Source: Euglena gracilis (lineage: Eukaryota). Taken from it: DNA of 64,000 nt. The notes beneath the pieces were generated by a model that searched no databases, was not told the origin of the DNA, and saw nothing but the letters and a program-made list of their open reading frames with translations. The DNA is taken from NCBI GenBank assembly GCA_039621445.1, contig CP154954.1:49083847-49147846 (forward strand), given 5' to 3'. This document shows, piece by piece, positions 1,173 through 60,138 of the stretch. Made by a program: the position numbers and the translations under genes. Every line of letters begins with the position of its first letter. Position 1 is the stretch's first letter.

Positions 1173-4100
1173 TCAGTAGCTGGGGACGTTCAGGGCCCGC
1201 AGCAGGTCCAGCAGGGGGTGCGGGGCTTCTGCAGGCTTCTTTTTACCAACCCCCACCGGGGGGGAGGAGGGTGCCTTGTGCCAAGGGGTTCCTGCCCACA
1301 ACAGGCGGGTCGGTTTTGGAGCCCAGCAGTGCCTGTGACCAAGCAAATGTTCCCACAAAAAAAAATCCCTTAAAATTGCCATTTTCGGGCCCCGACACCT
1401 GCGTCACCGGGGGGGGGGGGGAGGTGCTTTAGCACTACCCACCCCAAAAACCCGACCCCCCAGGGCGGGTCGAAAATGCCCAACCCCCCTGCCTGTTACA
1501 GCATCCACCTGAGGGGGGCAAAACTCCTTACCTCCCCCCCCCCTTGTCGTTGACACGCCAATGTTCCACGAGAGTGTCGTTGACACGGGGGGTGTGTGTC
1601 AACGACACGCCATGTCAATGTCACTGAGATTCAATAGGTAGTGTTCCAGGAAAGTGTCGTTGACACGGAGGGTGTGTCAACGACACGCCGTGTCAACGAC
1701 AAGGGGGGGGGAGGTAACAAGAGGCCTGGGTCTCTGGTTCGGCGGAGGGGAAGGGGTCTGCGGGGGACGGCAGGGCACAGCCCCGGAGGGCGTCGCGGGC
1801 TTGGCGGCAGCGACCCCCGTGTCCAGGGCGGTCCTTAAGCAAATAAAAAAAAAAACTCCGCTGTCCCAACACACTCAGTGAAAAATATACCGGAAAATAG
1901 GCAAGAAATTTTGGCATTTTTCAGCGAGGACAGGTCGACATCAGGAAAAAAAATGATTCCTGGCACCCTTGGACCATCGTCCATTCACCCAAATCATCAA
2001 AAACTGTGTTTTTCGACTTTTTAATTTTTGCCCTCGTTCAAGTCCCAGTCTGGCCCTTAGCCGGCCCTTTGGCCGAAAGGGGGGGCGGTCCTTAAAGAAA
2101 TAAAAAAAAAACTTTCCTGTCCCTTAAGGACCGCCCTGCCCGTGTCCCGGGGGGGGGGGCACAATGAGGTTATGGGGCGGATTGAGTTTGACCCGGGACC
2201 ACCCTTGGCTTGCCACCTGGCCCAAGGGGCGAAATCCCTCAGGGAAGAAGCCTCCCTCAATACCCCAGGCTGGCACTGAAAAAATGTCTGCTTCAGTTCA
2301 AGAAATTATTCTGATGGCAATACTTTTTCCGATATGTAAAAGCAAATTTCGAGGTTTTCTGCATCGCTCACATATTACTGCTGGTACAAATCAAAATGGA
2401 CGGCCCCTGAAACAAGAGTTTTTTATTTTTTGAATTCTTGACCACCTTTCTGATTGTGAACTCCGATGGAACGGGGAGCTGCTGGGCTGGAGAGGTCCGC
2501 TTCCAGCGCAGCCAACGCCAGCTGGGCTGAAAGGTCGCCGTCCGCCTGCGGTGTGCCCGGTGCGTCGAGCTGGCCAGCGGGTGAAGCGCTGGTTAAGTCC
2601 CTGGGTTCCACCACAGTTGCTGCCTGCAGCAGGGAGAAGGGGAAGACGTGGGCCGGACGTGGCCAGGTAAAGACGGACTGGCAGGCGCAGCTGTATGGAT
2701 GCATATCCATATTTGCATCCATACTTGTCCACGAAGAGATCATGTGCAGATTGGTTTGCAAATTGAATCCTTTTTATTTGACCCTAAACTCCCCCCAAAT
2801 AAGACCCCCTGGTACCACCTGGGCACCCCCTGGAAACCTCCAGGGGGTTATATTTATGGGGGTCTTGTTGGTTCGGGGCAAGGTTCTTTGCACTTCAACA
2901 ACACGGAAACCAGAAATCTGTGAAAATCCATCATTTTTGTGTCGAAAATTGGGTTTTCTGTAATTTTCCATGGAATTTTTTTCCCCATCCCCAGCGCTTC
3001 GTGCCGTCAGGGGGGGACGTATTTTGTTAGGCAAAAAAAAGTAAAAAAAAATACTAAACAGTCACAAGCCCATCAGTTTGGGCGTTCGAGCTTTACGGTA
3101 AGCAGAATTGAGGACGAGTTCTGGTTGTGGGGGGGGGGGGGTCAACGGGGGGGTGGGAAGGGCACAGCCGTCGTCAATGCCTGGGTGCCGTGCTGATGAA
3201 AACGCGGGGTCGGCCGGGGTGGCCAAGGGTGACTGCACCAACACGGGGGTGCCTGGGCCGTCGGAGGTTGGGACGGTGGCAGAGCCGCAGGGACCCCACG
3301 CAACGGAAAACTTGTGCGGCGAAAAAAACAACACTGGCATGATGGGGGTAGGGAGGTGCCCCTCCCCGATGACCAGGTGGGGAGGGGAGGCGGGTTGTTG
3401 CCGTCCACCCATTCGAGTTCCGCTGGCCCTGCTCAGGCAGCCGCTCCGGGGTTGCCTCTGCGGGGGCCGGGCTCGGACACGCCCCACTGCCGGCCACGGC
3501 CCCGCCCCAGTGTACCAAACGGTCCGCGGGGGACGCTGTGCCGGAAACCTTGCGAAGACCGCCCGAGGGCCGGCCGAAAGGCGGCAGCGGAGCGCTTGGC
3601 GCGGGCTGGGCGGGTCGCGAGACGACGTACCGGGCAGGGGCCGTCCGAAGGGGCCGGTCAGCGTGGGGCGGGAGTTCGACAGCGGTGTGCAATGTGTGGC
3701 GGTCGGGGCCGTGGAATGTAACGGGGGGGAAAATAGCAATGGTTTTGATGCAATTGAAAGGAAGAATGAGAAAAAAAACAGTGGGGCAAGGAAATGCCCC
3801 AGGATGATGTCCAAGGTATCCGTTGCGTTTGGGCAGGAGTGCCAGAACCTCCGGGGGAAGGGGGAACATCGACAGGAAAAGCAAAATCCCAAAACTAAAA
3901 TACGGTGTTTTTGCAATACAACTGTGGCCTCGTTTTCTCATTCTTCCCCAAACTTGGCCGATTTGTGCAACAAAGCCAAAAAAAAGTAGAAAAAAAAAAA
4001 AAAAAAAAACAACAAAAAAAAAACAACCCAACAAGAAAAAATTCCGGGGGGGAAAAATAGAAATCCTTGATAAGAATCATCACAGCGTGGCAATTGTAAG

Positions 4101-7100
4101 GCCCTGTAAGCAAATATATTTGTTTATGTTTGGTGTGGAATGCAGGCCCGTGGAGGTGGGGCTATATTTTGGGGGAGTGGACTCCATAATGTGAGTCACA
4201 CTTCTGACTCATATAGGGAGGCCCCTGGCCGGGGTGCAGCTTGCTGCACTTCCCGCCGAACTTGCACTGCCCCGTCATGGCCCAGACCTCACACACATAG
4301 ATTCACTTAGTGACCCCCCACGGGGGACGTTTCCTGGGCCCAAACCACCCACCCACTTTTTTCGAAAGCCCACCCTCCCACCCCCCCCCCCCGGGTCAAA
4401 CACCTGCCCAATCACCCAAAATCCAGCAAAAATTGGCCGAAAACGCTGGAAAAAATTTTCCAGCCCAGCCTTCGGCCTGACAAAAACCCCTGGGGGTGGC
4501 AGAGGCCACAACCACCCACCCCCCCCCGGGGGGGGGGGAGGGGTCGGTAAGTGAATCTATGCTCACACACTTGCCGGCCGGCCTGGGCCTGCACCGCCCC
4601 GGACAGCTGCCGGTAGTCCGAGAGGTCCGGGTGGGCGAACCGGCACCGGGGGGACTGCCCCCGCCTCCCTCACAGCGAGGCCCTGTCCCAGGGTGCTCCT
4701 GCTACGGGCAGGCATTCCACAATACAACGGTCGTCAAAAGAAACCTGGTGCAATGCCCTCTTGTTTGATTGTTCGTGCCAACTTTGGATTTGAACTCTGC
4801 TGGTTTGATCCATCGAGCTGACTCAGGCAATTCTCTCATGAAAATGGTTATTTTGGGGTTCCCGGTGCTGGTGCACAACACGGAACACCGCAAAACCCAA
4901 CACCCAAGAAGCGGGGTGGGGGGGGATGCCTCCTCCTCCACATGGGCTATTGCTTGCCCCCCCAGGAAAATGTCCTCCCGGGAAACTGTCATCTAAGCCC
5001 ACGGTTCAAACAGGGTGGGTAGATAAGGAGCGTTGGGAGCACCATTGGAAGAGATGCCCTGGGATGGCAGGTGTTTGATGGCAGCGCGGCCATCAAATAA
5101 ATATGTATTCTGCACTCAAAAAAACGTATTTTTTATGCTTTTGGATGGATCTAGTGGATATGGTCAATCCATACTGGGAACAATTTCCCCCGGCTGTCAA
5201 TTTGTTTTCACCGAGAAATATCGAATGAGCTCCGTTTCCCAGTGCACTTTGGTTGAATGTGCCGTGGGAGCCTTTAATGTTCGACCACCAAATCATGGCC
5301 CCGGTCTGGCAGTCGGTTTTGAGGATGTTCCTCAAACTCCAAAAAACTATTTGCAGGTGGCAGTCCCCCAAACTGCCAACTGGGAGACTGCCACCAGACA
5401 GGTCAGCAAAGCCAGCAAGTACAGAGGTGAGAGACACGCCCGCTGAGCAACTGTACATGAAGGAGCAGACACGCATACAATTTTAACCCACCCTGGAGGG
5501 TAACTTCCGAAAAGCAGTCAGTCACTCTAAAAAAGACCCCTCCCCGAGCGAGGTCCAAATCAAAGGGAAAAAAGTGTCTAGGTTTTCAACACTCACCACA
5601 CGCCGAAATCCGGAAAAGCAACTCGCCCTCAAACTTTTGATCAGAAACTTGAAAGTGTTGATCCAATTGGAGAATGCCCTTTTCTGAGTAAAGTGAAGGC
5701 GGAAAAAAAAGGAAAAACCATCAGAGATCTGCTGGTAAAAGGGCAGGAGGTAGGTCCCTAATTATCGACGAGGGTAGAGGACAATTTCCAGGGCACAATA
5801 GCGAAGAATCCCAAAAAAAGGCGACACCCGTCAGCGGGGGGGGGGGGCACAAGGCAGGGGCAGGCTGCCGCCGCACACAACGGCCCATCAGGTAGTCGAG
5901 GCACACCCGTGGCTTTTCCGCCTTGTCCTCCCGGGATTGCGGAGGTTGTTTTGTACCGGTCGCCCCAAAGCACCTCCAGGACAATGAGCCTTCGATGTGA
6001 TCGGGAATTGTCGGGCACTGTGGAATTTGTCGAGAATGGTGGGAATTTAAACACTTTTTGGACCAACAACACACACACACACACACAAACGAGGACAAAA
6101 CAATGCAGGGTTTCAAATTACCACAATTTTCACGAGTTTAACAAACAACACGCAAATTTCAAATTCAAGATTTGAAACAACCTCCTGTTGAGAAAAATAA
6201 GATGAACGTTTCCAAAGTATCGCCAGAAATGTTCGGAAACCCCATCCGGGACCCTCCCCCAACTAGAAAAACCTTTCCTCTACCCTGCGCGCCGAGGTGG
6301 AAATGAGGTTATAAATGCATTTTTTCAGCTGGTTTTGTTCAAAAAAAGAATCACAAAAAGAATCACAAAAATGGCCAAAAATGGGGCATTTTTGGCCAGT
6401 TTTGGGGTCCAGAATTTTTTCGGCGCTTCGTCCCGGGCACTGTAAAAAAAAATTCCCTTGGGGGTCCACTCGAATTTTCGCTGGCCAAATTTAGACTGGC
6501 TGCAGTCCAGCCCGCCCCCCCCCCCCCCGGGGGGGGATACTGCGAACCCTTGAGCAATAGACTGCACCTGACAGGTTGGCAGTGCAGGGACTTTGACAAC
6601 TTCATATGACAGGATGACCAGTACCAAAAAGTTGCTGGCTGGCTGGCTGGACCCCCCTGGGATAGGGTCCCCTGCCTGCTTGAGGAAACCCCTGGTTATC
6701 TCCTTGTCAGGCAGCTTGGCGAATACAAGCTCAGAGGCAACCGCTCGGGAGTTGTCCAGACTCCCCTCCAAAAAAATTGTAATTTTGCTTGTTCCCACCC
6801 CCACCAAAACACCCGTCGAAAATTCGTAAATTCCAAACAACTTTTTTTTAAAAAAGCGGGAAAAAGCTCTCCCCAATTCATGAGCCAATTTTCGGAAAGG
6901 CCAAGGCGAGTACAGAAGGGAGGCCAACTATTGATAGGCAGCCGGGAGCTAATTTCTGGGGGGGGGGCTTATAGTTGTCGGAAGTGGCGAAACCTCCCCT
7001 GAGCAGGGCCTAAAATGTTCGCGAGAACTGTAGCCGGGCATGCTTGGTCGGCCTGGCCGGCTGGAAAGACCCGCCCAGCGGCCCGTCACTGGCCATTGGG

Positions 7101-9611: not shown

Positions 9612-9724
<113 letters not shown>

Positions 9725-11858
9725 AACCCACCCACCCACCCACCCACCCACACACCCACACATACACACACAACCATCCAGAAAACAACGTCTGATATAC
9801 ACTAGGTGCAAAAATGTTGCTAAATCGCGATGGTTGTCCAGCAGGCAACCCTACCCCTTCTGCCATCGAACCATCGAACGATACACCCCAAGCGCTGGTG
9901 ACACCGACACATGCAGCGGAGCCTGCCAAGGATCGGGACAGCGATGGAGACGCCGGCTTAGGCTACAGCGGAACCAAACGCGGGCAGCCGGCCCCACAGG
10001 CCGGCAGGTCCCTCTCCCTCTCCCAATTGAGCAAACCAGGAGCAGGGACCTCTTTTGGCAGACCACAGAGGGGGAAGGGTTTGCCCCCCCCCCCCAGCTG
10101 GCGTCAGCCACAGCTGGAAATTGTTGAAACTGAACAGAGATGGGCTCACCCCATGGTTGCTGAGAGTGGGCTGTTCATCCTCATCCCGCTGTAATGCTCC
10201 CCATAAATAACGCCCCCCACCAAATATAAAGCCTCCCAGGGACATGTTTGCAGACGTTCAATGCAGTAACATACCTACCGCTCCCCGGGAAATTGTCACC
10301 GGACTGGTTGGGACCCTGACAACTTCCTATCATGACAGGTTGGCCAGTACCAGGCCATGACAGTTTCCGGGGCGGGATCATGACAGTTTCCCGGAGGGGG
10401 GTATTTTATGTATTACGTTTTTATAATTATATGTATATAATATCATGCCATTACGTTGCATTATGTTGCTTTATTATTTATATTATATTATTCATTTATA
10501 TTACATTCCTTTCAATTATTTTTCATTTTAATATTTGTTATGTTAATGTGTAATGTGTGTCATAGTCACAATTCTTCACCAGAAAGGAGCCATTTTGGGC
10601 TAAAGCATTTCGAGGCAAAGAAATGCGGCATAAAAGTGGACATATGACAACCCCCCCCATGAAGAGGTTGGTGTATCTAAGAGGCCCCAGGGTGAAAACC
10701 CTATTTAAAAAACCCCATTAAACCCTATTAAAAAAGTGAATTAAAATTTATATTATAATTCCTACTGTAAGACATTTTCAGGCAAAAGGACAAATGAACA
10801 AACAGGCAGGCAAGCAGGCAGACAGACAGCACCCAGGGGGTGTTTCGGCTTGGGAGGGCGGGAAAGCATGTCCAAGAGATCCCATGGGCCAGACCTGGGG
10901 TTAGGTAATGAGATGCAAGAGACAGAGAATCACCACAGCACACATGCGGGTCTCGAGCAAAAGGCCGACGATGTGGTGCTTCATGAGCACGCTTCCGCAC
11001 ACCCCGGTCAAAGTTCACCCACCTCCACCCCTTTTGTCCAGAACCGGGAAAGATGGGTTAGAACGAAGGTTTCTTGGTCAAAATATGAGCAAGAACCATG
11101 TGCTGAGATGGTGGAGGGGGATAAGAACCAGGCTGCTTCTATGTTGCTTGTTGAGATCCAGGTGCTCAGAGAAGGGGGGGGGGGCAACGTGACTAAAGGA
11201 AGAATCTGGCAATTTCGTCAAAGAAAGAAAAAATCCTTCAGCGCTGTTCGACTTGAAGGCAACAAGATATTAAAAGCACCCTCCCTTGTTTGAGCACCGG
11301 AAAAGAAAGGAAAAGACAAATGGCAGAGATTATTTCGCCAAAATATGGGTCAGAACCAAGAAGGTGCTGCTTAGAGCTGACTGCGAAAAAATTCAGGCTT
11401 TTTTGCAGTCAACGCTTTTTCGTTGGGGGGGTCCACCAAGGTTGTATGGGAACCTTGGAGGGGGGTGGGGGACCCCCTTCCAAAATTAGGGGGGGGGGGG
11501 GACTCCCCTCCCCTCCTACCTCCAGTTTTCGGTCGCCGAAAATTTCGGCCGTTTTTTTGGGGCAAAAAAAAATCAATTTTTCTGAAACTTCTCAAAAATG
11601 GTGGGGAATCAGAGTAAATGTCAGGAGAACAAATCAAAGCCCTTAAAGTGTCCTATCTAACAGTATTTTCCGCGCAACTCTGTCCCGAGTTACGGCCATT
11701 TTTTGGCCGATTCTCCAGAATTTCATGTTGAGCCTCAAGAGGGCCCAAAAAGTCGTCTGGGACAAAAGGAAAACACTCTCTGCCGTCAGTCCCTTGGGCA
11801 GGGCGTTCATCCGCAACGCCAACTCCAGTTCTGAGTCAATTTTAGGGCTCGCTGAGGA

Positions 11859-14800
11859 TCAGCAGGCAGCGACGTTGAGGCTGCGCAGCAAATCCAGCAG
11901 AGGGTGGGGGGCGAACAGTTGGGCGGAGGCGGCGGGGGCGGGGGGAGTCGGCAGCAAGCACCTCTGGTCAGCCATGCCCTTGGGCCCAGCATCGCCCAGC
12001 ATCGCCCAGCATCGCTCAGCATCGCCCAGCATCGCCCAGCATCGCCCAGCATCGCCTTTGGAGCCCTTGAAGGTGTACCTATAATGCCTGCTGCTTTTGC
12101 CGCTCTCGCCCACTTTTGGTTGCTTTTGGTCATCTTTGGTTGCTTTTTGACCACTTTGACCACTTTTGACTGCTTTTTGACCACTGTTGCCCACATTTGC
12201 TGCCTTTTGACCAATTTTGACTGCTTCTTGACCACTTTTGCTGCTTTTTGCCCACCTTTGCCCACCTTTGCCCATGTCCAACCACCTTTGCGGCTTTTTG
12301 ATCACTTTGCTGCTTTTTGACCACCTTTGGCCCCTTTTGCCTGCTTTTTGACCACTTTTGACAACTTTTGTTGCTTTTCGACCACCTTTGCCCACATTTG
12401 CTACTTTTTGCCCACGTTTGCTACTTTTTGCCCACTTTTGGCCATTGTTGCTGCTTTTTGATCACTTTCACTTTTTTTGCCCACTTTTGCTGCTTTTGAC
12501 CACTTTTGCCACGTTTGCCCACTTTTTTACCACTTTCGCTGCTTTCTGACCACTTTTACCCCACTTTTGCCTGCTTTTTGACCACTTTTTGACCACTTTT
12601 GCTGCTTTTTGCCGGAGGATGTGGTGCAGGCCTTTGAGATGGCAACATCGTGTGCAAATTGCAAGCCTCTTGCCGGTCAGACAAACAAAGTCCAAAACAG
12701 TTGTTGTGCTGGAGGGTGGAGGGTGGCACCCCATCTTGTCCATCTGCATCTTGTCCAGTATCTGCATCTTGTCCAGTATCTGCATCTTGTCTAGCATCTG
12801 CATCTTGTCCAACATCTGCTTCTTGTCCAGTATCTGCTTCTTGTCCACCATCTACTTCTTGTCCAGAAACTGCATCTTGTCCACCATCTGCATGTTGTCC
12901 AGTGTGTGCATCCAATTCATCTTGTCCAGCATCGGCATCTTGTCCAGTATCTGCATCTTGTCTAGCATCTGCATCTTGTCCAGCATCGGCACCTTGTCCA
13001 ACAACTGCATCTGCATCTTGTCCAGTGTCTGCATCCAGTTCATCTTGTCCAGCATCGGCATCTTGTCCAGTGTCTGCATCTTGTCTAGCATCTGCATCTT
13101 GTCCAGCATTGGAATCTTGTCCAGCAACTGCATCCAGTTCATCTTGTCCAGCATCGGCATCTTGTCCAGTATCTGCATCTTGTCCAGCATCTGCATCTTG
13201 TCCAGCATCGGCATCTTGTAGCATCTGCATCTTGTCCATCATCTGTCCAGTATTCATCCGTTGGCTCCTGATCAAGCCAAAATAACCACAAAAGCCCAAA
13301 AAATGGCCACAAAAAGCCCAAAATTGCCCACAAAAAGCCCCAAAAAGCAACCAAAATAACCAAAAATTGCCCAAAAACACCAACAATGTCTACAAAAGAT
13401 TGTGAAAAATGACCCAAAATCACCAAAAAGGCGCAAAATGGCCAAAAATGCCATACAATCTGCTCAAAAAGGCCCCAATTAGCCCAATATTTGCCAAATC
13501 AGTGATAAATAGCCCCCAAATTAGCAAAAATTGACCCATTATGGCCAAAATGGGTGTAAAACTGGAGATTTGTGGGAAAATTATCCCAAAAATAGTTCAA
13601 TTCTCCAAAATATACAAAAAAAATGCCAGCATCGCCCAGCATCGCCCAGCATCGCCCTGCATCGCCCAGCATCGCCCAGCATCGGAACCCCACCTCTGGT
13701 CTCCAAAAATCCAGCATCGCCCAGCATCGCCCTGCATCGCCCAGCATCGCCCAGCATCATCAGAGGTGCTTGGTCGGCAGGGCGCAGCCCCGGAGGGCAG
13801 TGCGGGCTTGGCGGCAGCGACCCCGACGGCGTCGTTGGGGATGGGGGGGCAGGGATGTGTGGGGACCCCTGAGTGGGGGGGACCCCTCACACGGGTGGGG
13901 ACTACCTCGAACCTGTTAGGGGCTTTCTATGGCCGTTCAGAGTCATGGATACTGGGCCGAAATTGTTGGGATTAGATGTATAAAGGCATGCGTATGCATT
14001 CAAACCTAACTAACCATTGAACCTAAAATTTTATTTGAAAATAAAACACACACCCAAACTGCTCTGTTTATGACTTCCTTGAATGTTTTTCATGTGGAAA
14101 AAAATCAAAAAAAATGTTCAATCCGCTGAAAAGCGAGGGGGAAAATCATTGTTGGTGCTTCCTGCAGATTCTTTTTCACTGCTTTTGGAAGGGTGTGGGG
14201 GTCAGACGACCACTCCCAACATCGGGGGGGGGGGGTCAGGACCTCCTTGCCCCCAAGCACCTTCGGTCACATACCCGCATCCCCGCGTCAGTGGCCGCAC
14301 CCACATTCCCTCATTCGCTCAAGTAAGGGCATAAAGGCATTTCCCCACCCCACTCCAACAGTCGCCTTACCTGCATCCCTGCATCCGCTCCAGTACGGGA
14401 TGGCCTGGTGGGGGTCAACCCCCCCCCTCCGGGAGGTACGGGGGGTTGACCCCCCCCACACACAGCATTCGGTGCCGAAGGAAAATTTTGAACTAAATAA
14501 GTGGTTCCTTGTGTACAGGGAGGCTTGGTGGGGGGGTCCACCCCTCCACGTACCACCCATGGGGTTGCGGGGATCCCCGTACAGCCCTGGCCCCAATAAC
14601 TGCACACCCATCCCATATCCAGACATCTGCTCCACACACACAAAGTGGTGCAAAATGGTCAAATATCGTCAAAATGGACGATATTTGAATATGAATTTAA
14701 ATGGACCCAAAAAAAATGCCAATAGTGGTTTGAAATAGCCAAAAAAAATGACCACAAATGGGTCACAGGAGAAAATGGCCCAAGACCAGAAGAAAATGAG

Positions 14801-17800
14801 CAGCCAAAAATGGCCAAAAATAGGTCAAAAGGGGCCAAAAGGGGCCAAAAGCTACATAAATTGGCCAAAAGTGGCAAAAAGTGGCAAACAACCTCCAAAA
14901 GCGGCCAAAGTGGCTGGAAACAAGTCGAACAACAGCCAAAAAATCTCCGCATCGCCCTGCATCACCGTGCATTGCCCTGCATCACCCGACATCGTCAAAC
15001 TTGCCCACCACCTACCTCAATACCAAAAGTCCCTGGGGGGGGGGGGGGTTGCGGTCTGTGCTGTGGTGCCAGTGCTCACACTTTTTTCAAACAAAAACAG
15101 CCCCAAAGCATGATTTTGTAATTTTGGGAACACGCTAATTTTAGAAATATAGATTTTGTTGGTCAGATAAAAATCCGAAAATGACAAAAAAAAGACGAAA
15201 AGTTTGGCCTAAGGCAAAAAAAAATATGGTCCAAGATGCAGAAATCCTCGAAGTCAAAATCATTTCCAAGCAGAAAATGGAGGGGAAAAAGCATACAAAA
15301 AAGCCAGAAGTTGCCAAAATTTGCCTAAATTTGTCAAATTTGGCTAACTTTGGCAACAAATAAAAAAAAAACACCTGGGTTCCCTTGTGAAACGTCCAAA
15401 AATGACCGGAACTCACTTCACCTCCCATTTTTGGTCCATGCGAAAAAATTGCTGAGAAAGGGGAAAAAAATGCGGAGAAAAATGCGGGAAAAATGCAGAG
15501 GATTGCGGAAAATGCGGAAATATTGCGGTAACCAATTCTCCCCGGGACTGGTCTCAATTTTGCAGGGTGCAAAACAGCAGAGAGGCTGGGGGCGGTGCCG
15601 TGCCAGTGTGCACACAATTGGCTGGCAGCGACTTCGGGGCATGGGGCTGGGTATGACCCACACAAGTTGAGGTGTAGGCAATTTATGCTCCACACAGCAC
15701 ATTGCAGGCAATTCCTGTGGCTCGCTGGGCTGGAGAGGTCCGCTTCCAGCGCTGCCAACGCCGGAGGGGCCGGGGTGGCACTCTCCGGGGGCGGCGTGGC
15801 CGGCCGGTCCTGGTCCTCGGTGGGGTCCCGGGGACGGGCTGGGGGGGTCCGCAGGCTGAACGGGAAGACGTGGGCTGGTGGGCGCGGCCAGGGCTTGATT
15901 GACTCGGCACAGCGTCTTTGCCATGGTCAATGCAGAGTCAGCAAAATAACTGGGCACCTGTTCTGGGCCGGCAATGGGTGTCTCATTTGCAATCCCAACT
16001 CCTTATTGCTTCCCAATCTCAAAATTGAATGCCAACCCAGAAATCACATGAACACACACAAGCAAACCACACACAACACACGCATTCAGACAACACACAT
16101 TGAAAGCTGCACGGTGTGCATGGTGTGCACGGAGTTCCGCATACCATACCTCGGTATCTCCACAGACAAAACTGCCGACCACTCCACCACAGCACCACAC
16201 CACACCATCACTGACTGGTAAAAAAGTCACACACAGCCACAACATTCAGGAATAGCAGGCGTTCCTTCCGTCAACGCCTGGGCAGCGACCCGACTTGACT
16301 ACTGGGTCCGCTGGCCAGGGCCAGGCATTGTTTTTTAAGGCACCATTGAAAGCCTTAAAAAAAAAACCTTAAAATGCCTAAAAAGTTGCACAAAAAGCCG
16401 TAAAAAAACCCTAATGCACCCTGTAAAACCATTTGAAAAAAACCCTTTAAAACCCTCAATAAAACTCCGGCAAACATTTCAAATTTTGAGCAAAATGAAG
16501 TTGCACAACAAATTTTTCTGCAATCGCTGGGAACTCTTCCATTTACTTGAACTCGCAAAAAACGTTTTCGAGTTTTCTGAAGTTGGACCCCTTCGGTATC
16601 GGGTTGGCCCTTTGGGTCGTAATTGGGAAGTAAAAATATCAAAAAATAGGGGGGAAAAATGCCATAAAAATTTGAAATTTATTCGCCTGAAAAATAATGC
16701 CTGGCCAGGGCTCCCGGGGAGCGGCGGCCAACGGGGACCGGGCCAATGCTGGGCTGCCAAGGGCCTCCAGGGTAGGGGGGGACCCCGGCCGCTTGCTGGA
16801 GTCCCCCGAGGAGACAGGGTTCGGGGGCGCCCCCCTGCCGTTGGCTGGCACCCAACCCTTGCGGCTGCCCAGTGAAAGGATTGGTACCTTTTCTTTCGCT
16901 GAGAAACACCCGGGGAAGCCTTCTGTGTCCTGCAGTTTGTTTGGAATGCTGGAGCCATTGCAGCTGGACCGTCAGAGCAGCAGCGCAACAGCAGTGCCAA
17001 CTCATTGAATCAACGCAAAGGAGAGTTCGTTAGGACGGCAAATGCGCCGAAGCCCCGTGTACCCAGGTTGCCCTGCGGCACCACGCCGGGTTGGACAGAG
17101 TCTCATCGGCCAATCGGACGTTGAAAGCGCGTGCAGGCCAAAGCGGACCCCCCCAGCGGCGCCAGAACCGCGACACGCCAATGCCTCATGACAGACAAGC
17201 ACCTCTGGTCATCCATGCCCTTGGGCCCCAGCATCGCCCAGCATCGCCCTGCATCGCCCAGCATCGCCCAGCATCGCCCAACATCGCCCAGCATCGCCTT
17301 TGGAGCCCTTGAAGGTGTGCCTATAATGCCTGCTGCTTTTGCCGCTCTCGCCCACTTTTGGCTACTTTTGGCTACCTTTGGTTGCTTTTTGACCACTTTG
17401 ACTGCTTTTTGAACACTTTTGCCCACATTTGCTGCCTTTTGACCAATTTTGACTGCTCCTTGACCACTTTTACTGTTTTTCCCCCACTTTTGCCCTTTTC
17501 CAACCACCTTTGCGGCTTTTTGATCACTTTTGCTGCTTTTTGACCACTTTTGGCCCCTTTTGCCGCTTTTCGCCCACCTTTGTGGCTACTTTTTGATCAC
17601 TTTTGCCCACTCTTGCCTGTGTTTTGACCACTTTTGCCCACATTTGCTACTTTTTGTCCACTTTTGGCCATTGTTGCTGCTTCCTGATCACTTTTGCTGC
17701 TTTTTGACCACTTTTGCTGCTTTCTGACCACTTTTGCCCCACTTTTGCTTTTTTTTTCACCACTTTTTGACCACGTTTGCTGCTTTTTGCCGGCACAGGG

Positions 17801-27174: not shown

Positions 27175-27212
27175 GGTGGGACGCGACGTGGGTCACCTGC
27201 TGGGGTGGGGAC

Positions 27213-30114: not shown

Positions 30115-30591
30115 GGGGGGGGGGGGTCGGCCACTCTGGAACCCAAGGGAAAGTTGACCACAAATGCGAAAAAAAAGCTAAAATTTTTCAGGGCCTTTGG
30201 CACTGAGCCAAAATTTTTCAGGGCCTTCGGCACTGGGTGGCACTGCAGTGGTTTTTGACCCCCCCTGCCCACAGGGAAACGCCGTTGCCCATACCCAATG
30301 AGTACGACGCTGATCCACGCGGCAGAGCCTGGCAGGGATCGGGACAGCGATGGAACCGCCGGCTTAGGCTACGGCGGAATCCAACGCGGGCAGCCGGCCC
30401 CACAGGCCGACAGGCACCTCTCCCGTCCCCCAAAGAGGGCAAACCACTGGCAGGGACCTCTTTGGCAGACCACGGAGGGGAAGAGTTAACACTTTTGGGA
30501 AATGCCAGCCAGGTCCCAGGGATGGCTGGAGGTTGTTGACCAGGGTCAGGGGTGGGGGGGGTTACGGTGAGGGACTGCAGGGCGCCAAAAA

Positions 30592-30738
30592 TCCTACTGA
30601 GGAATTTGGGTGGTAAACCCTACTAAGGAATTTGGGTGGTAAACCTTACTCAGGAATTTGGGTGGTAAATCCTACTAAAGAATTTGGGTGGTAAATCCTG
30701 CTAAGGAATTTGGGTGGTAAATCCTACTAAGGAATTTG
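30592..30738. repeat. 26-bp minisatellite, about 5.5 copies
   Basis: Unit GGAATTTGGGTGGTAAA(C/T)CCTACTAA, head to tail with no spacers. Confidence 0.9.
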
Positions 30739-35600: not shown

Positions 35601-38600
35601 CGCAAGCAACGCAGTCCGGCAAACACCCAGGACTCACACCGCCGGCAGCTCGGACACACCCGGGGACACAGCCGAAAGAAGCAACAGGGGCAGTAAAGGT
35701 CCCGTTCCTATGGTGCTTTTTTGCGTTTTTTTTCCCTTTTGGCCGGCAAGGTCCCGGGGGTTTCGACGTACAAAGTCCATTTTGGTACCCCCCAAAAACA
35801 CCATTTTTGGCCAAAGTCCCGGGGGTCTCCCAGCCAAAAACAGAATTTCGCTCGTTTTTTGCACTCTCTCGTCAACGTGTTTTCAAACCCCCCTGACCTT
35901 CACAGCCGAAACAAAGCAGAATCAAAAAAATCGTAAATTTGCGCAAGTGCGCAAATAAAAAGAAAAAAGCTTAAGTGCGAATTCGGCCGCCTAAGAGGCA
36001 TTAGATGCTGGGCAAGCCCTAGTCACAGAGTGGAGCAGTGTGAACCCCACCATAGGTTCGCTGGGCTTGAAAGGTCCGCCTCCAGCGCCGCCAACGCCGG
36101 AGGGGCCGGGGCGGCACTCTCCGGGGGCGGTGCGGCAGGCAGGTCCTCAGTGGGGTCCCGGGGACGGGCTGGGGTGGTCCGCAGGCTGAACGGGAAGACG
36201 TGAGCTGGCGGGCACAGCCAGGGCTTGACTGACAGGGGAGATCACTGCCAGGAAATAGGAGCGGGGCGGGGGGGGCAACCTGCAACCCTTGCGAATTGGG
36301 CTCCCCTATCTTTTGGCAATGGTTCCTTCCAATGAGGGGTGCATCTGCACAACATTTTTCACATGTGTGAACATTCACGCCGAAGTTGTCACCACACAAG
36401 GCCTCCACTGATCAACAAAGGAGTCACACACTTCCACAACATTCAAGAATATTAGCCGTCCCTTCCGTCAACGCCTGGGCACCGCCCCGACCTGACCACC
36501 GGGTCCGCTGGCCAGGGCTCCCGGGGAGCGGCGGCCAACGGGGACCGGGCCAACGCCGGGCTGCCGGGGGACCCCGGCCGCTTGCTGGAGCCCCCCGAGG
36601 AGACAGGGTTCGGGGGCGCCCCCCTGCCATTGACGGGCACTCAGCCCCCTGCGGCCGCCCAGTGAGCCAAGGGTCAGGATTGAAAGGCGGTGGCCAACGC
36701 CTTTCGGAACAGGCATCGACAACGCGGTGAATGTTAACGTGATCCTGGGCTGACCTTGGACCGACGCATCGTCGCCTCATTGGGGACACCGAAAGGGAGG
36801 GGTGGGATGCAGGAGGGCGGAGAGGGGACCGGGGGCGGGCTCCGTGGGCTGGGTGACGACGTAGCGGGCAGGGGTGGTCCAGCAGTGCAAATGACCTTTC
36901 GGCCAGCAGACGGAAGTGGAACTGCAAAAGGGACCGCCCCATAGCCAAGAATCTTCAGACTCTGGGTATTTTGATGCTGTTGTCGGGATTTGTTCGGATT
37001 TGTCTGGATTGGTCGGGATTTGTCGGGGCTTGTCACCGGAGGTGCTTGCCCGTCGCCAAAAAAGAATAATAATTCCATTCTTTTAACCTTCCCATCCTCA
37101 AACAGGCCATATGATCATGGAAACTGGCTGTGGGAAAGCTGGGCCAGGTGCAGGAAAAGACAGGAGGCTGGTGAACGATGCCATCCTAATGATGGGGCCC
37201 CCCTGGCCGGGGTGCAGCTTGCTGCACTTCTCGCCGAACTTGCACTGCCCCGTCATGGCCCACACGTCACACACCTGCCGGCCGGCCTGGGCCTGCACCG
37301 CCCCGGACAGCTGCCGGTAGTCCGAGAGGTCCGGGTGGGGGAACCGGCACCGGGGAAACTGCCCCCGCCGACCCAAAACAAAAAATACAGCTTTCCCAAA
37401 ATAATAAAGAAATAAATATAATATAATAAAAGATAAATGTATTTTTTTGACAGATCTTGGACATTTTGAGCAATTTTTTCGCCTTCTTGGCCAAGTTTTG
37501 CCACAACGACCATTATTCAGCATCCTTCAACCTGTTTGACCTTTTTCGGGTCTACCGCAAAAGCGGAATCCCAACTTTTAGGTTGCCTCCGCGGAGGCTC
37601 CAGGTAACCAGCCTCCATAGAGGCTCAAGGTAACCAGCCTCCTCGGAGCCATCATCAACTCCAGCATCCTCAGAATAATTACATCAAGGAAAACATGACA
37701 TTGAAACAAAAAAATGTGAGCATTGTGGGAGACTGGAAATCCTTTGATGACCTAAACTGATCCGAAAACTTGGTCAAAAAGACAACAAAAATCCGAAATG
37801 AAAAAGCAACAAAAACAGACCAAAATAATTTGTGTGACCCACACTATTCCAAAAGGATGACCAAGAATGATGAAAATAGCTCCAAAGAAATCGCTCACAT
37901 TGGAGCAAAATAGCCCGAGTTGGCTTGGGGGGCATGGTCAAGGTGGCAGGGTGGGCGTGGGGTGGGATACTTGTGCGGGGGGAGGGTCGGACCATAGGGG
38001 GAGAGGGTCGGACCATACAATTGTTTACAACCCCCCCCCGGGGGGGGGGGGGGGGAGGGGGGTCACTCCACTTTTTTTAAAAACCAGTCAGTCACTCATT
38101 TTCAAAAAACAAGCCAGTCACTACCCCCCCCGGGGGGGGGGGGGTCGGCCACTCAGAAAAACGGCCACTTTCCAGTCACTTTAGGCCATTTTAGGCCAAA
38201 AAAATTTTCCGGCGCCTTCGGCGCCGGGGTCACTCAAGCCACTTTTGCCCACTCCTGGCCGACCCCCCCCGGGGGGGGGAGGGGTCCGGGCCAAAAACAA
38301 GTCAGTCACTCTGAAAAAACCAGTCACCCACCCCCCCGGGGGGGGGGGGGGGGGGGTCGGTCAGTGCTTAAGCAATTGCCTGGGTCGGACCCCCTCCGTC
38401 TGCAAAAAAAAAATACGGAGCAAAGTGCAAAGTGGCGGGAATTTTTTGCCCCCCCCCCTCGGGGTCCAATGGATGGGAGGACTGGGACCCCCCATCCCAC
38501 CCCATCCCGTTCGGGAACCCCCAAAGTTTTTTCCGGCCCTTTGTACCAGGGAAGGTCAACAATTTTGGTACATGATTTGACCGATTTTTCGAAAAAGAAA

Positions 38601-39263
38601 GTGGGCAAAAAAGAAATTTGCAGAAGAAATCCCCTGCAGCCGAAATAGCTTCAGCTACAAAATAGGTGAGGCCGTTGGCCCCAGACCAGTCAGTGTTTGA
38701 GCGGCATCAAGGGGATGTCCTTAGTTACGAAACATCCCTGAAGTACTCCCCCGACCCCAGGGGGGAGGGGGGTCACTCCACTTTTCAAAAAATCAGCACT
38801 TTTTTTGGGAAACCAGTCAGCCACCACCACCCCTGGGGGGGGGGGGGCGGCCATTCTGGAATCCAAAGGAAATTTGACCAAAAACATGACAAAAAGGGCC
38901 CAAAAAATTGTTCGGGCGCCGGGTCACTTTAGTGGTTTTTTGCCGACCCCCCCCCCCGGGGAGGGGGTCCAGGCCAATCAGCCACTCCGAAAACCAGTCA
39001 GTCACTCTGAAAAAACCTGGGGGGGGGGGTCGACTCAGCGATTGTCTGGCCTGGGGAACCGCACCACACCAGGTGGGGGCAGGCCGGCGTCGCACGCAGC
39101 GGCCCTTCAGGTAATCGAGGCACACACGGCGGTTCTCCGCCTTGTCCTCCACCTCCTGCCGCGGCTTCGCGTCCCTCAGCCCGGACGGCTGGCGGCCGGC
39201 ATCGGACGGCCCATTGCCATCCAGGTGGATGAGGGAAGTCGCGGGGTAGGCTGGGATGCGCAT
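32604..39263 (-). pseudogene. Tandem CCCH zinc-finger protein, paralog B (fingers intact, C-terminal half apparently disrupted)
   Basis: ATG at 39263 (MRIPAYP). Exons: 39263-39086, 37351-~37150, ~36950-36750, ~36670-36455, ~36240-36058, ~32762-32604 (LLDLLRSLNVAAC*). In-frame TGA at 32751-32753 where paralog C has CGA. TGA at 36641-36643 plus one extra G where C has TGG. Confidence 0.55.
33020..35995. mobile_element. 3-kb TIR element inside the last intron of paralog B
   Basis: 26-bp perfect TIR CTTAGGCGGCCGAATTCGCACTTAAG. Direct flank AGGCA (or AGAGGCAYT if the ends are 2 nt shorter). Many GCGCATTTGCGCAAATGCGC palindromes inside. A solo end lies near 31040. Confidence 0.85.
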
Positions 39264-39817: not shown

Positions 39818-39849
<32 letters not shown>

Positions 39850-44062: not shown

Positions 44063-47000
44063 TCAACAGACAGGGACGTTAAGAGCTCGCAGCATGTCCA
44101 GCAGAGGTTCAGACCAGGGCTTCGCTTTTACACCCACCTCCTCGGGAGTCTGATTGAGAGGCTCGCTCCTAAAGTCAGGCAATCAGAAATTTGGGTGGCT
44201 GGAAAAGGCATCTGGAAGCCCCATTTGGATCCCAGAGGTGGGACTTGGTTAAGAGCTCGCGTTGGACCAAACGCAGAAAAAAAATTTTGAATGCAAAAAA
44301 TGCAAAAAAAGGAGACCTCAGTGAGCAGCAAACTGTAAACGTCGCCCAAAAAAATGTCAGACCCAAAAGCTGAGATATACCTTTGAACAGGCATTTTTTA
44401 AGGCGCCTTAGAACCCTTAAATTTCTGGAAAAAAATTCGCCAAAATGACTTACCTTAAAACATTAAAAAACCTTACAAAAATCTTAAAATATCGTTCTAG
44501 AAAATTTCAGAATTTTGAACAAAAAAGAAATCGCAAAATCTCGGCAAAAACAGGCCAACTCTGGGTGAAAAATGACATCTGGCAATACCCCCTGGTCAAG
44601 CTTCGGCTTCAGGGAAGCCCTGGCTGCAGGCTGTCCGGCAGTGCAGGAGGAGCAGGGACAGGCTCCAGCAGGGCGAAATTCCCGAAGGCGTTGCGGGCTT
44701 GGCAGCAGCGACCCTCCCCCTCACCCAGGCCCGGGCCAGGGTGGCTCCACCGCTCCACCACGCCCCCCAACTTCGGCCGGCCGGCCACTCGTCCTTTCGC
44801 GCCGCCCGACGCCGGCCCTGGTTCAAATTGATGGCCCATGAAAAAGCCACGGAAAGAAGCCACCACCAAAGGTCCAGTTGGAAATGACTGGCAGGGAGGT
44901 TCAGGGGCCCATGTGGGGTACTGCGCCATAGCAAACTTCGCCAAAAACGCTTTTAAAAAAACCAGAAATATATCAGAAATCCTCCAGCATCGGGACAAAG
45001 CGTTGTATTAAAGAAAGGGGGGGTTTGCAGACGAAAGTTTGTGGAAAAGGTTGTGGATTCCCATCAGGGACATGCTCAACAATGCACACTGGGGACATGC
45101 AGGGCTGTAGTGAAAATGGTGAAGGCCAAACCCCACTGGAAGGCACCGAAAGCAAACATTGACCTAACACTAAGGATAAGGTTGGGAGAGGGTACCTCCC
45201 CCCCCTTGTCGTTGACACACCAATGTTCCAGGAAAGTGCCGTTGACACGGGGGGGGGGGGTGTCAGCGACACGCAGTGTCAACGACAAGGGGGGGGGGGG
45301 GGTAACGTCGCGTATTTTCTTTTTGCACCCAGGGTTCACCACACCCACCCAGCCTGGCACAGCACTTCCACCCTTCCAAAGCCATTCAGTCGTTTTTTTC
45401 AGAAGACCGGGGGGGGGGGGGGGTGGCGACTCTGGGCTCCATGGATAAATCACCACAAATGCGATGAAAAAGAGCAAAAAATGAAGGCGTGGATCACTTT
45501 GGTTTCTCCCCACCCCACCTCCCGTGGGGTTCGGGCCCAAAACCAACCAGGTACTCTGAAAACAGCCCAGTCAATCAGCCACAATGGGGCGGACGACTGG
45601 TGTCCAAATGACTGTATGGTCTCAATTTTCAAAAAAAAAAAGTCTTGCATTTCACGTTGAAACCAGTCAATTTTTTAAGCACTGCCCCCCCCCCCCCCCG
45701 GGGTGACTGACTGCTTTTTTTCAGAGTGACTGACTGGGTTTGGGCCCGGCCGCCCCCTGGGGGGGGGGGGGGGTCGGCCAGGGGTGGGCAAAAGTGGCCT
45801 AAAATGGCCTAAAGTGACTGGAAAGTGGCTGGTTTTCCTGGGTGGCCGACCCAGGGGGGGGGGAGGTAGTGACTGTACCCGGGGGGGGGGGGTAGTGACT
45901 GACTGGCTTCCCAAAAAAAGTGACTGACTGGTTTTTCAAAAAGTGGAGTAACCCCCCCCCGGGGGTCGGTAAAAAATTGTATGGTTGAAACCACAGGGCA
46001 TTAAAGACCACGGTCCCAATGGTTTGGGTTGCCCTCACCTGCAGCCAAAGAGCTAACCCTCTAACTTTTTCCCCAAAAACTCCGAAACCAGGCATTTTGG
46101 CAGGTTTTGGGTGTCCCCCCCCCCACTTTGGGAAATTAGGGGGCTGCTGGACTGGCCAGGTCCGCGTCCAGGTCTGCCAACGCCGGCTGTACTGGAACCC
46201 CCGTCTCAGGGGGTGGCGAGGTGGAAAGACACACACAGCTGCTGAGATTCACGGTGGAGGGCGAGGGGGAGAAGAAAAGAGGCATTCGCCAATTTTCATT
46301 TTTTTTTTGAGAAACCTGCCAGTTATTTTCTGACTGAGGGGATGACTGCAAGGGATGACTGCAGGGAGGTCGTGGGGGGAAAAAGTGGATCACAGAGTCC
46401 AAACAAGAACTTACTATTTGAAGGAAGTGACGGGCTTCTGGTCAGGAGAAACCAGTCGACACCTCCGCAAACCAGGCTGGCGTTGAAGACAGGGCGTTTT
46501 GCTCAGAGACCCCAGGGGTCCAGCTCAAAAAGCTGGATAAATTGGGCTGGCTGGAAAAAGGCAACTAACTGGCTGACCCATGAGGTCCCAGGTTTGAACC
46601 GAGTAAAAAAAAAATCGAAACTGCAAAAATGTTCAAAAACTTGATTGTCGGGGGGGGGGGTTGATATCGAAGGCCTTGGGGAAAATTGCAGGAAAATTGT
46701 GAAAAATTTGCAGAAATTGCAGCAAGATTGTGGAAAAAAAGGTGACGGGAATGGAACACATTTCTGCTGGAGGGACTTTTAAATTTTCACAAATTTGGTC
46801 ATTTGCAATGTAGGTAAGTTTTGAGACATTTTCAAAATGTTTAAAGTTGACTTGGCAGACTTGCAACAAAATAACACCTGGGCTCCCTGATGAAACGTTC
46901 AAGGAATGGCCGGAACTCATTTCGCCTTCCATCTCAGGTTCATGCGGAAAAATTACGGAAAGGGTAAAAAATGCGGCAAAAATGCGGAAATTGCAAAACG

Positions 47001-50000
47001 TGTTCTAACCCGCACCCTGCTTTATTCAGCTCACTCATTATGAATCCGGGAACAGACTGCCCAACCACATGGCATCGAAACTGCGGAAAAATTGCGGGTA
47101 TTAACTACCTGCCCCCCCCCCTTGTCGTACGACCGGGTTCCTGCAACCTGTGACCGGGGGGGGGGGTCATAACACCCCTATAACCTGAAACCTGTGACCG
47201 GGGGGTGGTCGTAAATGGGGGGGCAGTCTTTGGTAAGGTGGTGTTAAAATTTTTGCAACCTCAACCTGTGACCAGGGGGGGTGGTCATAACACCCCCATG
47301 ACCTGCAACCTGTGACCGGGGGGTGGTCGTAAATGAGGGGTGGTCGTACGACAGGGGGGGGGGGGTAAGTTGACCTTTTGACCAAAATTTGCCCTGGTCA
47401 GCCAGCCCAATGAAATCAAATAATTCAAACTCGTCCATGGGGGAGAATCGGGTCGGGGGTTGGAAAAACTGCTGGCTGGCTGGCTGGGTGGACCCCCCGG
47501 GGGGGTCAAATTTCTTTTAAGCAGCACCCTGGTTGCAGAAACCAACCTGAAGAATGACAATGATGATCCAAGGCAACAGTGTGGGTGGGATTGGGTCACA
47601 AGGGGCTGGCGCCGTGGATGCTGGGCGCAGGCTGAAGGGGTGGACATGGGCCGGGCAGGGTCAGGCGCTGACGGGCTGCACGAGTTGGGCGAAGCTGGAA
47701 GGGGGGAGGCCCACAGATTGATTCAAAAACCCAGCGAGAGGAGGTTCTTCAAAAAAAAACCTGCTCGCCAACCTTCTTTAGGGAAAACAAAACTGACCAT
47801 CCAGGACAACACCCACAAATTGGCCCCAAATCGTCAAAATGGTTGTCAGGGGAATGGTTCATTTCCCTGACCACACAGCTTTGCATTTCGCGCAAAAGAA
47901 GCCGCACGCCCAACCCCCCCCCCCGGCACACCGGCGGCCTTCGTCAGCGCCCGGGCGCCGCACCGCCATCGGGATCGGCGGCGGCTCCGACGGCGGGGCG
48001 AGCGATGGCCGGGCCACCGAGCCGGCGGCCCCCGGGGGGTTGGAGGTGGGGAGAAGGGGCCACTGGGGCGGGGCGGCCGGCGAACGGGCGGGGTGCGGAG
48101 GCACCCTGCGGCGACTCGGGTTGCGACGGGTGGCCCGCCCGGCGTTGGGACAGAGGGGCTGACCACGGCAGCTGACAGCTGCCAAGGTGTGGCACTTGCG
48201 GAAATGCCTGGCGGGGTGCCAGGTTATTGGAAGCAACTTTTGGCCCCGCCCCCCCCCCCCGCCAGGCTATTTGGGCCACTTTTTCAGCGCCGTAAAGGAA
48301 TTTTGCGGACCTCGCCGAGTTGCTGGAACCATCTTTTTTGCCCCTCCCCCCGCCAAGTCATTCGGCCCCCACCAGGAGCAAGGACCCCGCCAGGTTATTT
48401 GGGGGGGTTTACGTCCAGATGTGAATGGCATGTGAATTTCCATGCAGACGTGGATACATGTTTAACTCCTGATACACGTCAGCCAACCTAACCTGATTGC
48501 TTGCGATGGCTAAACCCTGACCCTCCCCCACAAACAGAAGCACGGTTTCACTTCGACTTGGACCCAAACTGTGCAATTTTTGCGGATTTCTTTGCAAATT
48601 CCAACCAGATGAGTGTGCTATAGAAGCAGGAGAGTGCTTTTATTTGGAACCTACGCTTGTGGCGACCCCGCGGCTACATGGGGGGGTTACACCTGGTTAG
48701 AAAAAATAGAAACAAACAGACAGACAGACAAGTTTCTTTTCTGGGGCTGACTTGCCATCCCAGGTGCAAGGTTCATCAGTGGCACGAAATGTGGGGCGAA
48801 ACGTCGCCCTGGATTCACACACCATACCACCACCCCCTCCAGTTTTGAATAATCCCCAATTTTGGGGGGTTCATTTAGGTGGTTGGGGTTTGGTTAGGTG
48901 GTAAGGGGTATTTTTCCCCCTCCCCAAAATGATGAAAACATCGTAAAGATCATTTTTGACTCTCTAACTCCAATCTCACACAATGTGTTTTCAATCGGAG
49001 AAGGACAGAAGAAGCAGGGTGGACAGAGGACCACAGAAGACCTCCACTGGCGGCGGGGGCTGGGGTTGGGAGATGACGTACCCAGCAGGGGCTCACAACC
49101 GCAACAAGACTGTGCCACCGCATGACAAAAATGTTCTTGACACACGTTGCCGCCCAAGGTAGAGAGGCAGGTGGACGCAGAGGGCCCCTGGCCGGGGTGC
49201 AGCTTGCTGCACTTCGGGCCGAACTTGCACTGCCCCGTCATGGCCCACACCTCACACACATAGATTCGCTTGGCTTGGTGACCCCCCCCACCGGGGACTT
49301 TTCTTGCCCCAAACCCATCCACCAACCTTTTTTCGAAAGCCCTCCCCCCCACGACCCCCCCCCCCCGGGGTCAACCACCCAGCCACCAGCCAAAATTGGC
49401 CGAAAACGCTGAAAAAATTGCCTTGCAAAAACCTGTGAAAATTGGCCGTGCCAAAACCCGACCCATATTCCCCCCCGGGGGAGGGGTCCAGAGGCCACAA
49501 CTCACCCATCCGACCTCCCCGTTAAGTGACTCTATGCTCACACACCTGCCGGCCAGCCTGGGCCTGCACCGCCCCGGACAGCTGCCGGTAGTCCGAGAGG
49601 TCCGGGTGGGCGAACCGGCACCGGCGCCGCTGCCTCCGCCTCCCCCCCCATCCGCCAGGTACACAAAAAGATATGTGAAAAGCACAAAAACACACAAAAG
49701 TTATCACAATGGCGGTCCCAGTGGACAAAATCAAATCTTTCCCCAAAAAAACCAAAATGCGAAAAAAGGGGGAACACTTTAATGTGAGACCATTTGTTTC
49801 AGTTTGTAAAATATTGAGATCAAAAATGAACGCAAAAAAAAAAAAATAGGCCAAGATGGGCCTCCCTCCAGAAAAACTAATGGTCATGCCGCTCCTCTAT
49901 TTGTCCATTTTTTTTGAAAATGGTTCCCACAGGGGATGTGGAAAAAATGGATGGGAATGAAGAATCGCAAAAAAAAACAACCAGGCCCGGCACCACTTCA

Positions 50001-59999: not shown

Positions 60000-60138
60000 T
60001 GTGTGTGTGTGTGTGTTGTGTGTTGTGTGTGTGTGTGTGTGTGCGCGCGCGCGCGTGCGTGTGTGTGTGTATGTGTGCGTGTGCGTGTGTGTGCGTGCGT
60101 GTAGGTGTGTGCGTGTGCGTGTGTGCGCGCGCACGTGC

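Follow-up and report, generated by a model that had tools for sequence, protein, structure and literature searches.

Putative hAT-type insertions as probable nonconventional introns at a tandem zinc-finger gene locus of Euglena gracilis

How can a gene go on encoding its protein when transposable elements sit in its coding exons, and can such insertions tell us where the nonconventional introns of euglenids come from? The origin of these introns, and the reason for the 3- and 5-nt spacers at their ends, were still called unclear in the 2025 paper on their splicing code. Both questions are raised by a 64,000-nucleotide stretch of the Euglena gracilis genome (assembly GCA_039621445.1, contig CP154954.1, positions 49,083,847 to 49,147,846; hereafter the window, within which all positions are counted). 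Self-comparison of this 64-kb window and tblastn locate in it four tandem paralogues of a minus-strand gene of ~170-260 codons with two CCCH zinc fingers: copy A near 1.2-6 kb, copy B at 11.8-25.6 kb, copy C at 32.6-39.3 kb, and copy D at 44-50.4 kb. We conclude that non-autonomous elements, putatively of hAT type, have inserted into exons of this family and are probably excised by the nonconventional-intron pathway, which would restore the message. This reading refines a hypothesis already in print and does not describe a novel type of system. An initial annotation, made from the sequence alone, had described seven elements (at 1824, 4296, 11955, 16322, 17196, 20870, and 49259) as interruptions of coding exons; its observation is real and beyond chance, two of its sites were misassigned, and its interpretation was largely right.

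All seven elements have CA..TG terminal inverted repeats (TIRs), and six are flanked by an exact 8-bp target-site duplication (TSD), whereas at 20870, where the same had been claimed, the two copies agree at only 7/8 positions. Exact-match scanning recovered these six, and a count over all such ends in the window sets them against the background: among 11131 CA..TG pairs (TIR threshold at least 9/12), exact flanking repeats of 4 to 12 nt number 64, 19, 12, 6, 16, 3, 2, 0, and 0, respectively, and the 16 exact 8-bp cases compare with 0.17 under a uniform expectation for the same pairs. Setting aside two G8 runs and a CG simple repeat leaves 13 clean cases in 64 kb; beyond the named elements, these include 27048-27174, 27213-27513, 33038-35977, 38014-38382, 45664-45983, and 52061-52360. 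The absence of GT-AG ends, also claimed, held throughout: in 9 elements with 9 registers apiece, no register gives GT..AG or GC..AG. The families had been called unrelated, which is not confirmed: the internal sequences form five groups, but many of the TIRs share a CAGGnnTTnnnTTAAG-like pattern. TIRs start with CAGGG in the elements at 1824, 56461, 40915, 22421, and 52061 and with CAGGC in several others; the remaining starts are CATAG, CAAGC, CACAG, and CACTT, and all 20 listed elements begin with CA. Folding to minimum energy pairs the two termini, starting at the first base, in 9/12 short elements; the exceptions are 1824, 49259, and 52061.

Five of the seven sites do interrupt coding sequence, through four independent events, and for each of the five a sister paralogue preserves the empty site. 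A 266-bp MITE (miniature inverted-repeat transposable element; 4296-4561, TIR CATAGATTCACTTA, exact TSD CTCACACA) splits the finger-2 codons of copy A (..RQVCE|VWAMTGQC..), and a 278-bp copy of it (49259-49536, exact TSD CTCACACA) splits the same codon of copy D. The two are a single insertion event, older than the A/D duplication, and ungapped alignments pass through one TSD copy in copy B (19847-19898) and copy C (37244-37295). The other three events are in copy B. An 1818-bp high-copy element (11955-13772, TIR CAAGCACCTCTG, exact TSD GTCGGCAG) lies in the last coding exon (..ALRGCA|LPTPP..), where copy C aligns ungapped (32670-32721) and copy A does so with 1 mismatch. A 382-bp element (16322-16703, TIR CAGGCATT, exact TSD GCCAGGGC) lies at ..REPWP|ADPVV.., with its empty site in copy C at 36489-36540, also ungapped. 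Finger 1 (..RRVCL|DYLKGRC..) holds a 4559-bp composite element (20870-25428, TIR CAGGCTTCAGGG/CAGAGTTTAGGG, 9/12; TSD GTCGAGGC/GCCGAGGC), whose left end has no partner close by and the right end of which is set by the paralogues: copies A and D continue ...AGTCGAGGC|ACACCCG..., copy B resumes at 25437, and copies A, C, and D align ungapped through a single target copy.

A further exonic insertion lies in the last coding exon of copy A (1232-1728, minus strand, TIR CAGGCTTCTTTTTACC/CAGGCCTCTTGTTACC, TSD GGCTTCTG/GGTCTCTG, 6/8). The transcript-derived protein P0001 (EG_transcript_11334) gives tblastn matches around it, with ...SAEPE at 1803-1732 and EAPHPLLDLLRALNV at 1229-1185, and copies B and C align ungapped across the site. 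The two remaining elements of the annotated seven both lie within older nonconventional introns and not in exons. One is a 315-bp MITE (1824-2138, TIR CAGGGCGGTCCTTAAG, exact TSD CCCGTGTC) placed ~10 nt inside the 3' end of the copy A intron that precedes the last coding exon, as judged from transcript-derived protein; the other, of 1736 bp (17196-18931), has the exact TSD ATGACAGA and sits as a nested insertion within copy B's intron 4. The latter belongs to the family of the 11955 element, to which it is 83-93% alike, and the TSDs of the two differ. Empty sites had been reported for most of the elements; for these two, no ungapped paralogue alignment through a single target copy was found, and at 1824 no paralogue aligns across the site.

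Evidence for removal from RNA comes from read mapping over 10500-30499, and statements about joints refer to the 15 joints listed there. X1 and X2 are probable RNA contig sets, X21 consists of raw RNA reads, and X20 is DNA-like; the RNA labels are presumptive, and X20 behaves as DNA, with ~20-40x depth where the sequence is unique and with no joint of the RNA-only kind. Together with 8 nt, the 20870 element is removed from RNA: the joint 20863->25431 skips 4567 nt, exactly 4559+8, with 102 raw reads in X21 and depths of 357 in X1, 499 in X2, and 0 in X20, and 6 nt fit both sides. Four other joints are confined to the RNA-type runs (raw reads in X21, then values for X1, X2, and X20): 19956->20839 (882 nt; 67, 674, 0, 0), 16822->18958 (2135 nt; 18, 522, 200, 0), 27206->27517 (310 nt; 19, 174, 104, 0), and 28485->30335 (1849 nt; 51, 819, 201, 0). 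None of these five RNA-only joints is GT-AG in gene orientation, nor is any other RNA-supported intron of the locus. One more intron, 30447-31532, is indicated by a loose end at 30446 that equals 31533-31562 exactly. Across the 16322 element, RNA bin-mean depth falls, which is compatible with absence from most reads. The joint 11946->13773 skips 1826 nt (= 1818+8; X21 2, X1 136, X2 133, X20 28.4; 8 nt fit both sides) and is also found in a 566-nt X20 contig of depth 28.4, the depth of a unique copy, that spans the empty 11955 site. Thus, the 11955 element is polymorphic for presence and absence at the DNA level, and it has been mobile recently.

How do these joints compare with the published splicing code? 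In the portion of Nomura et al. (2025) drawn on here, knock-ins yield the motif N3-CDG ... CH'G-N5-6 | purine, with a strict donor spacer and an acceptor spacer in which one additional nucleotide is tolerated (PMC12501133). The motif is matched at 20870, 16322, 1232, 28486-30334, and 19008-19811, all of which, as in euglenid nonconventional introns generally, have non-GT-AG ends, a terminal stem that joins the ends, CAG at +4..+6, and CTG at -8..-6; at 19008-19811, the exon starts with T. The RNA-verified intron 28486-30334 (minus strand) has a purine at its exon start and a border repeat of which only 2/8 positions agree. Introns 16823-18957 (CGC/GCG) and 19957-20838 do not match. Seven introns between 16.8 and 31.5 kb have RNA support, and their spacers are 3+5 in four, 4+4 in one (30447-31532), a total of 9 in one, and atypical in one, so that the nucleotides from stem to cut sum to 8 in 5/7. 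The 3+5 arrangement is seen at 19008-19811, 28486-30334, and 16823-18957 (stem CGCCCCCCTGC/GCAGGGGGGCG, start +4, end -6), and intron 20864-25430 is compatible with it, the TSD mismatch limiting the split to at most 6. In the atypical intron, 19957-20838, CAG/CTG is absent from the usual offsets and the stem CTGACCCCGCC/GGCGGGGGCAG begins 8 nt from the donor cut. This intron is common to the paralogues, and one RNA-like contig has 3 extra letters at its joint.

A simple scheme would connect these features. Non-autonomous cut-and-paste elements with CA..TG inverted ends of 10-20 bp would insert at GTnnnnAC-like sites with 8-bp duplications, and an exonic insertion would give a transcript in which the inverted ends form a hairpin flanked by two 8-nt target copies. 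The pathway would cut 3 nt before the 5' arm and 5 (sometimes 6) nt after the 3' arm, with a preference for an exon that opens with a purine; since 3+5 is the length of the duplication, the element and one target copy would be removed and the message that existed before the insertion would be restored. Target position 6 is G, in gene orientation, in 5/5 independent exonic events, too few for a test, and the downstream exon in each would accordingly begin with the purine typical of nonconventional introns. Under this scheme, we expect the 4296/49259, 16322, 1232, and 11955 insertions to be spliced as well, and the 3+5 spacing would exist because of the 8-bp duplication. That the two spacers sum to one duplication had been proposed in the initial annotation, and it agrees with the published N3/N5-6 code and with 5/7 RNA-supported introns, one other intron departing from it. 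We lean, with some reserve, toward the stronger form of the idea, in which the 3- and 5-nt spacers are the two halves of a hAT-type 8-bp duplication and the pathway is an RNA-level eraser tuned to one transposon superfamily.

Several observations weigh against this reading, here and in the two alternatives that follow. Removal of exactly the element plus 8 nt, which had been predicted for all, is supported by RNA for the 20870 element only. Intron 27207-27516 removes 310 nt, that is, element+9, since the 301-bp element (27213-27513, exact TSD GTGGGGAC) plus 8 bp makes 309; target position 6 is a pyrimidine here, the cut falls one base further, at a purine, and the published 6-nt acceptor spacer would fit the case. 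This intron looks like part of the untranslated portion of a neighboring minus-strand transcript. At 11955, the joined form exists as DNA, and the 11946->13773 joint is therefore no proof of splicing. No joint for 16322-16703 is among the 15 listed, which is evidence neither way. At 20870 itself, copy C is empty, is expressed (at 25465, 85 reads have loose ends identical to 39151-39180, within 39091-39263), and differs from the B joint at 2/60 nt, and part of the reads across 20863->25431 may thus be cross-mapped from copy C. However, cross-mapping is unlikely to account for all of them: reads of C type are seen separately as loose ends at 25431 (21 reads), exon 1 past 25465 is B-specific yet covered, and P0001 is 100% identical to copy B over exon 1 (aa 1-50, 25581-25432) and exon 3 (aa 61-108). 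Further, P0001 and P0002 (EG_transcript_32696) match copies B and D, respectively, in their N-terminal halves only. The C-terminal half of P0001 is not copy B and represents either another allele or an assembly chimera; from the two proteins, either the family includes alleles or copies beyond those in the window, or the transcripts are chimeric. Finger 1 of P0001 has one arginine more than the X21 joint gives, and finger 1 of copy C has one arginine codon more than the B joint in raw reads. Finally, the letters at 16300, 25521, and 25552 differ, so that the window and the RNA runs may represent different strains.

hAT elements carry TIRs with the consensus YARNG. The elements in the window resemble hAT elements and their MITEs (Ac/Ds, hobo, Hermes) in the 8-bp duplication, the short TIRs, many of them starting with CAG, the non-autonomous derivatives with many different interiors, and a target of the form nTnnnnAn / GTnnnnAC, and differ from them in that the fifth TIR base is often C, not G. 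Across 14 independent TSDs (a set that leaves out the 49259 element, the G8 runs, and the simple repeat), GTnnnnAC is matched at 34/56 positions, against a mean of 14.0 for random 8-mers from the window and with 0/20000 resamplings reaching 34; position 2 is T in 8/14 and position 7 is A in 7/14. Hermes targets are reported as NTNNNNAN, with many of the form GTnnnnAC (PMC2803484), and this target consensus is what favors the hAT label given in the annotation. It is less likely, though a reasonable reservation, that the elements belong to another superfamily that duplicates 8 bp (Merlin, P, Zisupton, or an undescribed one), which would leave the rest of the model unchanged. A Pfam scan found a transposase domain in 0/10 open reading frames (ORFs) of large elements (sub-threshold chance matches only), so the superfamily assignment rests on ends and targets only, and all copies in the window look non-autonomous; our literature search also returned no paper on hAT elements in Euglena. 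Two Merlin families with 8-bp TSDs are described from the same host (PLoS One 2021, PMC8101967). In the portion of that paper used here, however, Merlin TIRs have a conserved terminal GG and the elements encode a DDE_Tnp_IS1595 transposase, neither of which is seen here: terminal GG is absent from 20/20 listed elements, all of which start with CA, mostly CAGG. Together with the Hermes-like targets, this makes hAT the superfamily to which the elements would most readily be assigned.

A second alternative, which we consider rather improbable, is that the 4296/49259 and 11955 insertions are not spliced at all. Copies A and D and the filled allele of copy B would then yield truncated or no protein, and seemingly spliced transcripts would derive from empty alleles or from paralogues elsewhere in the genome. 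The ends of these elements, CAT..ATG (4296/49259) and CAA..TTG (11955), do fall outside the CDG/CH'G motif, and single-base mutants of the CAG or CTG motif lost splicing (PMC12501133). An empty 11955 allele is present as DNA, the C-terminal half of P0002 is only 84% like copy D, and the C-terminus of copy A has diverged. On the other hand, the same source places 38.8% of E. agilis nonconventional introns outside the motif (PMC12501133). The finger codons of copies A and D are also intact on both sides of an insertion that predates their duplication: the flanking finger exons differ at 5/144 nt, with 1 amino-acid change, whereas the two copies of the element are ~79% identical over 160 aligned nt, a divergence of ~21%. 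Moreover, P0002 runs contiguously across the site; it matches copy D at 100% identity on either side of 49259 and has the D-specific N-terminus and KFGPKC. These observations argue, short of proof, that the CAT..ATG element is removed from RNA as well.

A third possibility, that the 8-nt repeats are not target duplications but were left by the repair of double-strand breaks as introns were gained, was the reading given by Milanowski et al. (2016) to 8-nt repeats at one recent E. agilis gapC intron (PMC4770533, in the part consulted), but it is very improbable here given one element family at several sites with differing 8-mers, the very high read depth over these element families, nested insertions each with its own 8-bp repeat, a palindromic target consensus, and a sharp excess at exactly 8 nt.

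The gene model of copy B (minus strand) places these insertions in context. Exon 1 (25586-25431) has its ATG at 25581, and 23 RNA reads have loose ends at 25586, where the reverse complement of the tail is ATTTTTTTTC and the adjoining genomic letters are AG. This tail resembles the end of the Euglena spliced leader, and the site, which lies 5 nt ahead of the ATG, looks like copy B's trans-splice acceptor. Intron 1 (20864-25430) interrupts finger 1 and consists of the 20870 element and 8 further nt; it is followed by exon 2 (20863-20839), intron 2 (19957-20838, joint 19956->20839, 882 nt skipped), and exon 3 (19956-19812), which encodes finger 2 and is the empty site for the 4296/49259 insertion. 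Intron 3 (19008/9-19811/12) is defined by loose ends at 19008 and 19812 that match each other, exon 4 is 19007-18958, intron 4 (16823-18957) is RNA-verified, 2135 nt long, and host to the nested 17196 element, and exon 5 (16822-16704) is directly followed by the 16322 element. A six-frame scan for the C-x8-C-x5-C-x3-H finger gave four minus-strand occurrences, at 4234-4293, 19815-19874, 37212-37271, and 49197-49256. In a protein search with exon 3, all 17 of 17 matches were euglenid transcript proteins of EukProt (EG_transcript_* or GGOE01*), the best at 100% identity; the same kind of search with exon 5 returned 168 candidates, 0 of them at E<=0.01. The last exons of all copies were located by the C-terminal exons of P0001 (..ALAALEADLS|KARHALRGCALP..LNVAAC*). 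A last-exon frame reading GVAAAKPA was rejected, the transcript protein giving ..KAR.ALRGCALP..LNVAAC*.

Some of the larger elements are composites. Within 20870-25428 lies an element at 21912-25106 (TSD GTGCCAAC), and within this another at 22421-23143 (TSD GCAGTTTC), making three levels of nesting in which each insertion has its own 8-bp repeat. A 731-nt skip at 22412-23144 (the 723-bp element + 8) is seen in the RNA-like runs and also in the DNA-like one, and because it is present in DNA, other genomic copies of the host element must exist without the nested 22421 insertion. In copy C, the intron that precedes the last exon contains a 2940-bp element (33038-35977, TIR CACTTAAG, exact TSD CGAATTCG) whose interior (33500-35300) is packed with arrays, both inverted and direct, of the palindromes TGCGCGCA and TTGCGCAA; its ORFs match no protein family and contain no transposase domain. 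A foldback repeat of a different kind occurs at 1525-1717, 21500-21900, and 47112-47364, with long C/G-run ends followed by CTTGTCGTTGACAC and without CA..TG ends or a clear 8-bp duplication; copies of it are located within the 1232-1728 and 20870-25428 elements. Long simple repeats are found at 9613-9723, (CA)n, and at 59750-60170 (CA/CG).

Parts of this picture have precedents. A MITE origin of nonconventional introns, to which the initial annotation alluded, is indeed in print (Milanowski 2014), and a 2024 review in Mobile DNA equates the TIR with CAG/CTG and mentions "TSD-like" repeats (PMC11282704). The same review relays that euglenid nonconventional introns are released as full-length circular RNA (Guminska et al. 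2021). In the portions of these sources that we could draw on, the origin is given as "MITE-like" or unclear; "slidable" introns make up 84.4% (PNAS 2025), and one paper excluded such repeat-flanked introns. Our literature search returned no statement of an 8-bp or hAT-type duplication or of the 3+5 arithmetic, although supplements may hold distributions of repeat length (PNAS 2025 Fig. S3 and Datasets S7-S8; Milanowski 2016 Table S3). Unlike the introns described there, those at this locus can be recognized as copies of transposons: 8-bp duplications are intact, relatives occur in many copies, and there are empty sites and one insertion that is present in one allele and absent from another. 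Some ends (CAT..ATG, CAA..TTG, CGC..GCG) are off the published motif. The closest parallel is with the introners of Micromonas and Aureococcus (Huff, Zilberman and Roy 2016; PMC11282704, in the part used here), where DNA transposons likewise turn into introns when they insert, with part of the splice junction contributed by the target duplication, so that removal restores the message. Those introners, however, have GT/GC-AG ends, 3-nt duplications, and depend on the spliceosome, whereas here the signal would be a TIR hairpin with fixed spacers, and the 8-nt duplication would be split 5|3. Removal at the RNA level by a dedicated pathway that does not look spliceosomal is, in turn, not a property of hAT elements.

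What would this mean for Euglena? The locus brings together, in 64 kb, young copies with intact duplications, paralogue empty sites, a polymorphic insertion, and nesting, along with older introns of the same build in which the duplications have decayed. It gives the candidate superfamily a name from the target consensus, and it turns the question of origin into one of genome-wide counts on existing E. agilis and E. gracilis data. If the scheme is correct, border repeats across the genome should be no longer than 8 nt in the -5..+3 register and should erode as the TIRs age, autonomous hAT elements with CAGGnnTT..TTAAG ends should exist, and scarless insertions should be those with a purine at target position 6. 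Exonic insertions would then be nearly neutral whenever that position is a purine, and the same process would account for the share of nonconventional introns among those of euglenids, ~70%, and for the fact that most of them are "slidable."

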